The notes beneath the pieces are model-generated. The model did no database searches and was not told where the DNA came from. It saw nothing but the letters and a program-made list of their open reading frames with translations. This document shows positions 43,716 through 47,776 of a DNA stretch of 64,000 nt, piece by piece (position 1 is the stretch's first letter; each line of letters begins with the position of its first letter). The translations under genes and the position numbers were made by a program. Location: NCBI GenBank assembly GCA_046482545.1, contig JAWOEX010000039.1, positions 1 to 64,000 on the forward strand, written 5' to 3'. The stretch is from Candidatus Thorarchaeota archaeon. Lineage in GTDB: Archaea > Asgardarchaeota > Thorarchaeia > Thorarchaeales > Thorarchaeaceae.

Positions 43716-44795
43716 GTGGATATAGGATTGACAAAATGTACAATTTCGTACACAACGACTGATGGAGTTTCTGAGAGAGCCACTATTGAAAATGGTTCTA
43801 TTGACTTACGAAAAAAATCCATCGAGACCATCAATTTGACAGGATTTGAAGGCTGTGATGCTCTGAAGAGGTTAAAACTCGATGGTAACAAACTCACCAA
43901 GATTAATCTGGAACCCTTGAGTACTTGTCCGAACCTCCGAGTCCTTGACATATCGAAGAACAGCTTCACCGAGTTGGATATTTCTCCTCTTGAGAAATGT
44001 GAAGAACTCGAGAAGTTGAACATTGGAACGAACATCATCGAAGAAATTAATCTCTCGGTTTTGGAAAATTGCGAAAATCTTCGCAGTTTGAGATTGTTCA
44101 ACAATAAACTAAGAGAAATCAACCTAGAAGCTCTTTCCAATTGCTCACATTTGACTCGCCTTGAGCTGGCCAACAATTTGCTCGGTAGCTTGGATTTGTC
44201 GCCGCTTGACAATTGCGAGGAAATCGAGCAACTGAATGTGATGTATAATGAACTGCGTCACCTTGATCTTAGCCCACTCTCCGCTGCAAAAGGACTGCGT
44301 TTTCTGTATTTGCATCACAACTATCTCGAATCGCTTGATTTGAGCCCTCTTCGGAACTGCCCTGAATTACACATTCTCCGACTCGGAGGCAACGAACTAC
44401 AGGAAATCGATCTTGCACCCCTATCTAAATCTAAGAATCTGGTTAGAATAGGTATTGCAATGAATAACCTCCGGGAAATTGATTTGACGCCCCTAGCTGA
44501 GTGTTCGGCTCTTTATAGTTTGGACATTTCACGCAACAAACTAACCGAGATAGACCTTGAGCCTCTTTCCAACTGCAAGAACCTTGAGGAACTCTATATT
44601 TACAGCCATCACGAGCAGGAAGAAAATAGGTTTGAAGAAATTGATCTGACGCCTCTTTTTGAATGCCCAGAGCTCATAGACATGATTCTGCCAGAGAAGG
44701 CCGAACTTGTGGCAGATAAGGAGTATAAGGATCATGAAGATATACCCACAGCAATGGACAGGCTAAAAGAAGACGCCAGGATTACTTGGATCTAA
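43716..44795 (+). CDS. Leucine-rich repeat protein (22-aa repeats)
   Basis: About 12 repeats of LxxLxLxxNxLxxI(D/N)LxPLxxCxx; no signal peptide or TM. Confidence 0.92.
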   Translation: MDIGLTKCTISYTTTDGVSERATIENGSIDLRKKSIETINLTGFEGCDALKRLKLDGNKLTKINLEPLSTCPNLRVLDISKNSFTELDISPLEKCEELEKLNIGTNIIEEINLSVLENCENLRSLRLFNNKLREINLEALSNCSHLTRLELANNLLGSLDLSPLDNCEEIEQLNVMYNELRHLDLSPLSAAKGLRFLYLHHNYLESLDLSPLRNCPELHILRLGGNELQEIDLAPLSKSKNLVRIGIAMNNLREIDLTPLAECSALYSLDISRNKLTEIDLEPLSNCKNLEELYIYSHHEQEENRFEEIDLTPLFECPELIDMILPEKAELVADKEYKDHEDIPTAMDRLKEDARITWI

Positions 44796-44959
44796 GCCAA
44801 CGCTAGATTTAGGTAATCAAATTAAACAACATATTTTCGGACAATGGGATATAAAGTCATTCTATCCAGTTTGTATCTTCATGGTTCTTAGTGTTCAATT
44901 CTTCACAGATGGGTAGTGTATCTCCTATCATAACGAGGAATGGGGAGGTGATGTATTGC

Positions 44960-44980
44960 ATGCATGATGAGATTGTGTGA
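44960..44980 (+). CDS. Candidate micro-ORF MHDEIV
   Basis: GGAGGTGAT at 44944-44952 precedes ATG 44960; TGA at 44978-80; in-frame upstream ATGs at 44951 and 44909. Confidence 0.3.
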   Translation: MHDEIV

Positions 44981-45007
44981 GCAATGCAGTGAAGGAGGTG
45001 AAAAAGT

Positions 45008-45040
45008 TTGATACCTGACTGGCCCGACGTTCCTTGGTAA
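45008..45040 (+). CDS. Candidate micro-ORF MIPDWPDVPW
   Basis: AAGGAGGTGA at 44992-45001, 6-nt spacer, TTG start, TAA stop, then GC-rich hairpin. Confidence 0.45.
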   Translation: MIPDWPDVPW

Positions 45041-45059
45041 CTGATTTATCAACCAAATG

Positions 45060-45081
45060 GGGGGTCAGCCTCGTGACCCCC
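45060..45081 (+). terminator. GC-rich hairpin closing the micro-ORF unit
   Basis: gggggtca/tgaccccc 8-bp stem, 6-nt loop, pyrimidine-rich tail. Confidence 0.6.
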
Positions 45082-45231
45082 TTCCTTAACTATTTCTCCA
45101 AACTTCTAGAAAAGCTGACCTCCTCCTGAAGGCTGTGAATGCACCACTAGTTCACTTGAATATCTCATTACCAAGAAAATTGAAAACGAATATAATAGAT
45201 AAACAAGATAAGTTTCAAGAGTTGATCAAGC

Positions 45232-45879
45232 ATGGTCATCGAGATGGATGAAGAAACAAGGAAACAAGTTGAAGAGAGATTCCAAACATTGGATGGGAAG
45301 GTTTCGATGCACCTGTTTGTCGAGAGCCAAGATTGTTTGTACTGTAGTGATGCCAAGGAACTCGCCAGCAAGATAGCTGAACTCTCAGAGAAAATCGAAC
45401 TGACTGAACATGATTTGCCCGAAGCTAATGATGTTGCTTCTGAAATGGGAATTCGTTTCACTCCTGCTATTGTTCTACATGGTAAAGAGGAGTACAACCT
45501 ACGTTTCTATGGTATACCCGCAGGACATGAATTTGGTGCCCTCATTTCTGATATAGTTGACGTGTCAACGGAATCAGTTCAGCTACCCGAAGAAATGATC
45601 GCAGATATCGAAGCAATAAATCAGAAGGTGCACATTCAGGTTTTCACAACACCGCAGTGTCCCTATTGCCCCAACGTGGTTCGTTTAGCGCATCAAGCGG
45701 CCATAATCAACCTGAAGATAGAAAGTGATATGATTGAGGCGCTCGAATTCAAGGATTTGGCTCAGCGATACGAAGTATTCGGTGTTCCCAAAACAATATT
45801 CAATGAGGTTTTGTCTGCGGAGGGGAATATCACACCAGAAGAATTTGTTGACAAGCTGTACGAAGCTACTGAAACATGA
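45232..45879 (+). CDS. Protein disulfide oxidoreductase (PDO, two thioredoxin folds)
   Basis: CLYC and CPYC motifs, FYGIPAGHEF, GVPKT. Confidence 0.92.
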   Translation: MVIEMDEETRKQVEERFQTLDGKVSMHLFVESQDCLYCSDAKELASKIAELSEKIELTEHDLPEANDVASEMGIRFTPAIVLHGKEEYNLRFYGIPAGHEFGALISDIVDVSTESVQLPEEMIADIEAINQKVHIQVFTTPQCPYCPNVVRLAHQAAIINLKIESDMIEALEFKDLAQRYEVFGVPKTIFNEVLSAEGNITPEEFVDKLYEATET

Positions 45880-47266: not shown

Positions 47267-47776
47267 TTGATTATTATGAAAGCGGAAGGTGTGAAACCCG
47301 TGGATGAGAAAGAAACGTTACACTTCATAGATGACCAGATAAAATTGGAAGAGAGGATAATCGAAATAGTTGAAGAAACAACTTCAAAGCTCGGAAATGC
47401 CTTTGTCAAGCAGATGCTGCTCGGAATCGCCCAAGATTCAAAGAAACATGCAGCACTCTTGACTTCACTGAGGAATGCAGTTGAAGGTCCTACCCCATTC
47501 ATCAGTGAAGAAGAACGTGATGACATTGCTGACGGAATAGAAAAACACATCGAACTAGAAGCAAAAGCAATCGAAACATACGACCAACTAACGAAGGAAA
47601 GTGATGATCAGCAGGTGAAGTCCATAGCATCAATGATCCATGAAGATGAAATTCGACATCACAGCTTGCTGAAGGAACTCCACAAAACCATGATAGAGCC
47701 AGAGACACTTACTGAAGATATGATTTGGGACGCGTTCTGGAAGGATAGCCCGTGGCACGGAAGCCCTGGCGGTTGA
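47267..47776 (+). CDS. Ferritin-like (rubrerythrin-type four-helix) protein
   Basis: E...DSKKH and E...EDEIRHH di-metal motifs; C-terminal tail WKDSPWHGSPGG. Confidence 0.8.
   Translation: MIIMKAEGVKPVDEKETLHFIDDQIKLEERIIEIVEETTSKLGNAFVKQMLLGIAQDSKKHAALLTSLRNAVEGPTPFISEEERDDIADGIEKHIELEAKAIETYDQLTKESDDQQVKSIASMIHEDEIRHHSLLKELHKTMIEPETLTEDMIWDAFWKDSPWHGSPGG

Follow-up and report, generated by a model that had tools for sequence, protein, structure and literature searches.

A 64,000-nucleotide stretch of contig JAWOEX010000039.1 from a Candidatus Thorarchaeota archaeon (the window) contains a ten-codon open reading frame (ORF) that encodes the peptide MIPDWPDVPW. The ORF lies in a 436-nt gap between a leucine-rich repeat (LRR) gene (43716–44795) and a thioredoxin-like gene (45232–45879, assigned by Pfam). 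Its peptide sequence is under purifying selection, and it is very probably a genuine, translated gene. It very likely belongs to a previously undescribed family of micro-ORFs in Thorarchaeota-type Asgard archaea, of which the window unit is an 'orphan' paralog. Genes of this family are repeatedly paired with winged helix-turn-helix (wHTH) regulators, mostly in cas loci. The best overall explanation, to which we assign a probability of about 0.42, is that the window unit is an orphan family gene with its own expression unit, the product of which would serve as a peptide ligand of wHTH regulators.

A preliminary description of the gap had listed a TATAAA motif, two Shine-Dalgarno (SD)-like sites, two short ORFs, a hairpin and a pyrimidine tail, and direct reading confirmed the gap and all of these features at the coordinates given below. 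It had interpreted them as an unannotated transcript making tiny peptides. The self-contained expression unit and the decapeptide gene are borne out by the paralogs and orthologs described here; the second peptide, MHDEIV, found no support. We refer to the source genome as G000 (contigs C9, C22, C36 and C44 are mentioned below) and to two species of the same genus as G001 and G002. The 16S rRNA of the source genome is archaeal (SSU_rRNA_archaea model, 903 bits).

A ten-codon gene under purifying selection

The decapeptide ORF (45008–45040, + strand) starts with TTG 6 nt past its SD site and ends with a TAA stop codon (TTG ATA CCT GAC TGG CCC GAC GTT CCT TGG TAA). The internal repetition pointed out in the preliminary description is real, with proline at every third residue [(P-D-W)(P-D-V)(P-W)]. 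BLASTN of the gap against its own genome revealed a second copy on contig C9 (G000:C9:236289-236321, minus strand), which encodes the identical peptide from an ATG start. Copy 1 (the window copy) and copy 2 share only ~90 nt, made up of a small hairpin in the leader, GAGGTGAAAAA and the ORF with a few bases past it.

Over codons 2–10, the two copies differ at six sites. All six are among the seven synonymous third positions, and none is among the other 20 sites, a pattern with a hypergeometric probability of 7/296010 (~2.4e-5). The start codon is preserved, as TTG in one copy and ATG in the other. A 1-nt indel between the SD site and the start alters the upstream frame between the copies, and in copy 1 a TGA stands in frame two codons 5' of the TTG; the shared coding sequence is therefore exactly the ten codons. 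Conservation in relatives of the SD-to-start spacing, and of the peptide under synonymous change, had been proposed as a check on the original reading, and its outcome favors the decapeptide. The unit stands alone: at the copy 2 locus no gene follows in the same orientation, and copy 2 faces a convergent gene.

Expression signals of the unit

The SD site of the decapeptide ORF, AAGGAGGTGA, spans positions 44992–45001 (+ strand). The 3' end of the genome's own 16S rRNA reads ...GGATCACCTCCT, and nine contiguous bases pair with it both here and at the first SD-like site of the gap (GGAGGTGAT, 44944–44952), making both sites true anti-16S matches. For comparison, each ORF was represented by the strongest SD of any candidate start within its first 30%, a choice that favors the genes. 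Among the 1946 ORFs of at least 200 amino acids genome-wide, 11 had a match of at least 8 bases and one had a match of 9 bases; none of the window's ORFs of this size (n = 43) went beyond 7 contiguous bases. The earlier statement that these anti-16S matches are stronger than those of most real genes thus holds. Genome-wide, GGAGGTGA shows no enrichment (76 sites versus 75 expected, about ten of the sites preceding long ORFs), and by our own rough estimate two such sites within 50 nt are expected ~0.05 times per genome.

A promoter-like element, GATATAAAGTCAT (44848–44860, + strand), includes TATAAA at 44850–44855. All three copies in the source genome have this element as GATATAAAG[TG]CAT (CATAAAAGGTCAT in copy 2), 143–162 nt 5' of the start. 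Since the motif is common to all three units, TATAAA is probably a TATA box, and the transcript predicted from it would have a 5' leader of ~120–135 nt. The small leader hairpin (44972–44990, + strand), just 5' of the SD site, pairs ATTGTGT with ATGCAGT around the loop GAGCA. Its counterpart in copy 2 reads ATTGTAT / ATACAAT; all three differences turn a G-U into an A-U pair, which keeps the pairing and, as a comparison of two sequences only, offers weak support for the hairpin.

Downstream of the ORF, an 8-bp GC hairpin with a pyrimidine tail (45060–45099, + strand) may serve as a terminator and/or stabilizer. Its arms are GGGGGTCA (45060–45067) and TGACCCCC (45074–45081), and its loop is GCCTCG. 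The seven other copies in the genus each have their own, different GC hairpin 17–22 nt past the stop and, after it, a T-rich or pyrimidine-rich stretch. The folding z-scores of the unit are unremarkable (-1.4 and -1.0).

The first SD-like site is followed by the hexapeptide ORF MHDEIV (44960–44980; ATG CAT GAT GAG ATT GTG TGA), and the two together (44944–44980, + strand) had been taken for a micro-peptide gene with its own SD. Neither is conserved. At the corresponding position copy 2 has no ATG, no SD and no C-box-like ATGATGA, and their absence removes the support both for the hexapeptide and for the C/D-box matches considered below. The first SD-like site and the MHDEIV ORF probably have no coding role.

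Further copies in the genome and genus

The pattern IP[DE].P[DE].PW has exactly three matches in the six-frame translation of the 3-Mb source genome, each of them a micro-ORF behind GAGGTGA; we estimate the chance expectation, from typical residue frequencies, at ~0.005. On contig C22, the third copy has AGAGGTGA 7 nt 5' of a TTG start, encodes MIPEVPELPWIY and is followed by a GC hairpin of its own. It was found with a covariance model of copies 1 and 2 as a weak match in the source genome (E 0.08); this two-copy model gave nothing significant in the 86 genomes of the Thorarchaeota-type family. BLASTN of the 436-nt gap against 40 relatives gave the second copy within G000 as its sole match.

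In G001 and G002, the positions that correspond by synteny to the C9 and C22 copies have GAGGTGA, 6 nt, a TTG start and the peptide M[DA]PEMPDQP[WF], so that the syntenic orthologs in these sister species differ from MIPDWPDVPW at four positions. GAGGTGA precedes the start by 6–7 nt in the three G000 copies and in the five G001 and G002 copies, and GGAGGTG precedes the ATG by 5 nt in a metagenome copy (L144); an SD 5–7 nt 5' of the start is retained in 8/8 genus copies and in L144. Two metagenome contigs (L165 and L166) bear the G001-type unit. In a strain at 94% protein identity, copy 2 is kept codon for codon, and the changes in its hairpin are compensatory, leaving the pairing intact.

Within G001 (L158, L160 and L161) and within G002 (L159 and L162), the copies are nearly identical from the SD onward and differ between the two species. 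This near-identity suggests concerted evolution or gene conversion.

A search for exact PDWPDVPW over 185,579 species genomes gave 13 matches, none of which is a micro-ORF ending in W-stop. The matches are mostly in longer frames of bacterial genomes, with two in frames of 23–30 codons, and were read as chance.

A micro-ORF family beside csa1 and csa3-like regulators

The pattern P[DE]xP[DE]xPW followed by a stop gave 13 matches in 12 of the 86 family genomes, versus one control match. Outside the genus, most matches proved to be a micro-ORF between csa1 (PF06023) and the gene for a csa3-like CARF-wHTH regulator. To avoid ascertainment bias, we collected all csa1 loci of the family without using the pattern. 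The search covered the 85 other species genomes of the family (G000 itself has no csa1) and gave 16 loci in 15 genomes from 12 genera. All 16 loci carry an ATG-started micro-ORF of 12–26 codons with the core P-x-x-P-[DEV]-W-P-W (for example MFEDYHPPDEPEWPW, MYVVVFDPEDPDWPW and MKAYSWPPDDPDWPWNPKAPKEPKPE). The micro-ORF is on the strand opposite to both neighbors, pointing toward csa1 (convergent) and away from the csa3-like gene (divergent). Four of these ORFs extend 3–13 residues beyond WPW, and the proline spacing mostly continues in the extension (for example ...PDDPDWPWNPKAPKEPKPE).

Across the 16 cores, the entropy at codon positions 1, 2 and 3 is 0.26, 0.31 and 1.36 bits, respectively. 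An antisense gene was considered as the source of this conservation and rejected. The sole antisense frame that shares the wobble position is open for just 12–81 codons and has no start codon 5' of the core in at least 9 of the 16 loci, and its translation swaps H/Q and Y/H at synonymous sense proline codons and alternative stop codons.

A metagenome scan with P[DE][DE]P[DE]WPW gave 50 matches, most of which are chance occurrences within long frames on GC-rich contigs. True micro-ORFs beside csa3 account for four matches, including L144, and csa1 is a further neighbor in three of these; two matches on viral contigs were dismissed as chance. The other 314 genomes of the phylum sample had no match with an earlier, narrower pattern (the improved motif was applied within the Thorarchaeota-type family). 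A full-text search of open-access PMC papers and bioRxiv preprints gave no mention of the motif as a peptide.

In many genera, the interval separating the csa3-like gene from the micro-ORF contains two to three occurrences of a GCAACTT(G) / TGCAAGTTGCA-like motif (for example in L080–L095), which probably constitutes the regulator's operator. Between the micro-ORF and the csa1 stop there is a CTAGTTCAAT / TAGTATAA-like motif together with a long covarying hairpin with a T-run.

Other regulator neighborhoods

The source genome has CRISPR arrays on contigs C36 (L097, 1–993) and C44 (L096, 1–9574), with 37-nt repeats (GTTGCAAAAG...ATTGAAAC). The C44 array is followed by a type I-D-like cas locus encoding an HD-domain protein of 895 amino acids, Csc2 and a DEAD helicase. 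Between this array and a divergent gene for a 499-residue double-wHTH protein, we observed GGAGGTGAAAAATC, a TTG start and MYHPPDDPHPIPPW. In three other genera (four genera in total), homologs of the 499-residue regulator again adjoin this divergent micro-ORF, which bears the motif PP[DG]DPxP[IV]PPW; these micro-ORFs are a sister sub-family.

A third set is found in the source genus, where the C9-type micro-ORF is convergent with a gene for a 528-residue wHTH-like protein (P0002). Neither P0002 nor a 639-residue protein, P0001, has a Pfam match. In the ESM Atlas P0002 resembles large HTH_24-type wHTH proteins common in Thorarchaeota (feature score 0.92, template-modeling score 0.59–0.69), a likeness that is a lead only. 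P0001 and P0002 homologs form just four clusters in 5.8 billion proteins. The two genes form a conserved pair that brackets the C9-type micro-ORF (L008 8355–12255 on G000 contig C9; L158 and L160 in G001; L159 in G002; L164–L166). In G001, the P0002 gene with its micro-ORF is present twice, each time at a contig start, which suggests a repeated element. Elsewhere, a single micro-ORF copy adjoins an ABC-2 transporter gene, a neighbor that is not conserved.

The insertion and neighboring genes

The entire unit is contained in an insertion of ~310 nt (roughly 44830–45137, no strand assigned) that is missing from the orthologous gap in both congeners. These two genomes have only ~125 nt between the LRR and thioredoxin genes and retain the thioredoxin promoter AATATAAT without the micro-gene unit. 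The short gap with its own thioredoxin promoter indicates that the window unit is an insertion specific to the source species. The insertion has no target-site duplication, direct repeats or terminal inverted repeats, and a mobile-element signature was dropped from consideration for want of direct or terminal inverted repeats. Within the insertion and 3' of the terminator, GCTGACCTCCTCC (45114–45128) resembles the 16S 3' end; it is complementary to the 5' arm of the hairpin (45060–45069) and imperfectly complementary to the SD. A Pfam scan of the neighbors agreed with the earlier observation that no dedicated modifying enzyme is adjacent at the window locus.

Further downstream, a ferritin/rubrerythrin-like protein (47267–47776, + strand) has the C-terminal tail ETLTEDMIWDxxWKDSPWHGSPGG. 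This tail hardly varies across the Thorarchaeota-type family and can still be recognized in other Asgard genomes. The micropeptide was considered as a mimic of the tail (MIWDxxWKDSPWHGSPGG) and found no support as such, the tail being absent from the 12 best BLASTP matches listed. The best short-peptide BLASTP match of the micropeptide against the proteome scored 25.2 bits, inside the shuffle range of 20–26.5 bits. W.[DE].PW occurs 12 times versus 6.5 expected.

A candidate peptide ligand and the alternatives

The predicted product is a short acidic peptide in which proline recurs with a period of three residues, as would suit a polyproline-II helix. Acidic residues follow the prolines and the third position is aromatic or hydrophobic; such a helix would present one acidic face and one aromatic or hydrophobic face. 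We propose that the peptide acts as a free intracellular ligand or co-regulator that would bind the neighboring wHTH regulators. Its non-proline positions would provide species-specific matching to the regulator, and the window copy, as an additional one with a promoter of its own, would increase dosage. That a free peptide binds these regulators is a tentative proposal, at somewhat less than even odds. We favor it over action on the ribosome because matching to a partner explains the pattern of conservation more easily: the ten residues are fixed in copies 1 and 2 but changed in the sister species, which fits an evolving partner more easily than the ribosome.

Several observations weigh against this proposal. 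Most cas-locus copies have no SD, a TCGATAAC-like sequence precedes the ATG, and expression signals vary by sub-group. The window copy and the C22-type copies have no adjoining regulator. The likeness of copies within a genome could in part reflect gene conversion rather than matching to a partner, as the G001 copies are identical from the SD on. Free ten-residue peptides without a processing or export signal have few precedents. Finally, the architecture (a very strong SD, a mini-ORF, a GC hairpin, an association with cas loci and PPD/PPW motifs) is equally compatible with a translation-dependent RNA toxin.

Such a toxin would be a small RNA like CreT, in which highly efficient translation of a Pro/Trp-rich mini-ORF stalls or ties up ribosomes, aIF5A or tRNAs and so arrests growth. 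The RNA would be silenced by the neighboring regulators or by a CRISPR effector and would guard or serve the cas locus, and the window copy would be an escaped or domesticated one. The ribosome-arrest peptide suggested in the preliminary description survives in this form as the main alternative, although we consider it less likely than not. CreT requires an SD, a mini-ORF and a GC hairpin; the mini-ORF of the P. aeruginosa type I-F CreT is 15 nt long, has two proline codons and then the stop, and blocks translation in vitro (bioRxiv 10.64898/2026.06.02.729485). Archaeal CreTs rely on efficient translation signals (PMC8501985). The window unit matches this published definition in having an SD, a mini-ORF and a stable hairpin; its SD is in the top 0.1% of the genome, and in the genus copies a GC hairpin falls 17–22 nt past the stop. 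Like the CreTs of P. aeruginosa type I-F and the tRNA-sequestering CreTs of haloarchaea, it is a small stand-alone unit with proline codons near the stop. An association with cas loci is seen at the level of the family, which is present in 16/16 csa1 loci and also beside the type I-D locus and array on C44. The N-terminus is variable and the C-terminal 8–10 residues are conserved, usually right at the stop, an arrangement typical of arrest peptides. The WPP[DE] and IPPW motifs of the family resemble the hardest-to-translate sequences PPW and WPPP, which are among the strongest EF-P/eIF5A-dependent pause motifs (PMC8705083; PMC4176338). A variable N-terminus and a Pro/Trp-rich C-terminal motif at or near the stop, of the EF-P/eIF5A-dependent class, are likewise shared with AZIN1 uCC (PMC8705083) and the WPPP stallers (PMC4176338); unlike these, the micro-ORF is archaeal, has no downstream ORF to regulate, and has no consecutive prolines in the genus copies.

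The absence of consecutive prolines from the source-genus copies also speaks against a CreT-like RNA, as do several other observations. A search for a creA-like degenerate repeat gave none: Smith-Waterman alignments of the CRISPR repeat with the micro-ORF gaps scored at background in genome G008 and at all four G000 loci, and none of the array spacers has 11 nt or more in common with the micro-ORF loci or matches a promoter there. Published creA repeats are highly degenerate (PMC8501985), so that a badly degraded creA could have escaped alignment. The proline codons vary freely and follow no rare-codon logic; what is conserved is a peptide of 8–10 residues with free synonymous variation, not particular codons. 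The ORF is 10–27 codons long, compared with 4–6 in the CreTs of both cited papers (bioRxiv 10.64898/2026.06.02.729485; PMC8501985). The four cas-locus copies that extend past WPW, and the lack of an SD in most cas-locus copies, fit such an RNA poorly, and ten residues fixed in two old paralogs yet changed in sister species are hard to reconcile with the invariant ribosome as the target. Three to four copies per genome lie away from any recognizable antitoxin. The neighbors here are wHTH or CARF-wHTH genes, and some copies are outside cas loci; family members lie in or beside cas loci, and the window copy lies between the LRR and thioredoxin-like genes.

A secreted or modified signal peptide, RiPP-like (a ribosomally synthesized and post-translationally modified peptide) or pheromone-like, would form species 'pherotypes' sensed by the neighboring regulators. 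We regard this as improbable. The sequence does differ between species and is uniform within a genome, regulator genes adjoin, and one copy is beside the ABC-2 transporter gene; very small precursor genes also exist, such as those of MccA (7 codons) and the biarylitide bytA (5 codons). The peptide has, however, no signal or leader sequence, and no modifying enzyme, peptidase or dedicated exporter lies beside the copies examined, the lone ABC-2 neighbor not being conserved. The RiPP-like precursor of the preliminary description is unsupported on the same ground, as Pfam scans of the neighbors gave no modifying enzyme beside any copy examined. The mccA and bytA genes are a precedent for functional genes of ten codons or fewer, but they are RiPP precursors with adjacent modifying enzymes, and none is present here. 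RRNPP and arbitrium pairs offer a likeness in gene arrangement, a tiny, lineage-specific peptide gene adjoining a transcription regulator. Those pro-peptides are processed and bear export signals, and the regulators that they pair with rely on TPR domains, whereas the micro-ORF product has no signal sequence and the regulators are of the wHTH or CARF-wHTH type.

Less probable still is a non-coding RNA, either an archaeal C/D-box small RNA or a 30S sponge acting through its two anti-16S sites, a reading that is largely refuted. Two 9-nt anti-16S matches 48 nt apart would suit a sponge, and ATGATGA (44963–44969) and CTGA (45015–45018) resemble C and D boxes. An Rfam search of the window at the gathering threshold gave no match; weak matches to sR11 (17.4 bits, E 0.9) and sR33 were seen at permissive E-values, but 17.4 bits is far under the 39-bit gathering score. 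The C box and the first SD are missing in copy 2, and CTGA is missing in copy 3. Substitutions are synonymous with three-base periodicity, and the folding z-scores are unremarkable. The 30S-sequestering RNA that had been suggested thus gives way to a substitution pattern of coding sequence and not of RNA. To a leader peptide or attenuator for the thioredoxin-like gene we assign the smallest probability of all. The unit is on the same strand 190 nt 5' of that gene, and its two Trp codons are followed by a terminator-like hairpin. The congeners, however, have the thioredoxin gene and its promoter without the unit, and the gene following copy 2 or a cas-locus copy is convergent with it; the missing unit in the congeners together with the convergent gene 3' of copy 2 excludes such a role.

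Discussion

We class the unit as a small-ORF or CreT-like unit with peptide-level conservation and with protein regulators as its neighbors. Gene callers overlook ten-codon genes, and selection is known for very few of them. In this case selection on a ten-codon gene can be demonstrated from the sequence alone, and the gene leads to a whole family. The fixed place of that family between csa1 and the csa3-like CARF-wHTH regulator (16/16 loci in 12 genera, plus metagenome contigs) makes it a concrete and testable new component of archaeal CRISPR loci, and the placement beside other wHTH regulators points the same way, in a lineage close to eukaryotes. The family would be new under either mechanism, as a CreT-like toxin that answers to protein regulators instead of a CRISPR-like guide RNA, or as an intracellular peptide ligand of archaeal transcription factors.

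A more general possibility, which we put forward as speculative and on the unlikely side, is that in Thorarchaeota-type Asgard archaea a wHTH or CARF-wHTH regulator and an acidic peptide of 10–27 residues, every third of them proline, constitute a regulator-coupled module in CRISPR-cas loci, with the peptide as either a ligand or a regulator-controlled arrest toxin. If this is true, the ligand would be an intracellular, pherotype-like signal that tunes CRISPR adaptation or defense, and the arrest toxin would halt translation during infection. Either version would represent a new wiring of CRISPR loci to cell physiology, and the micro-genes would be among the smallest selected archaeal genes known.

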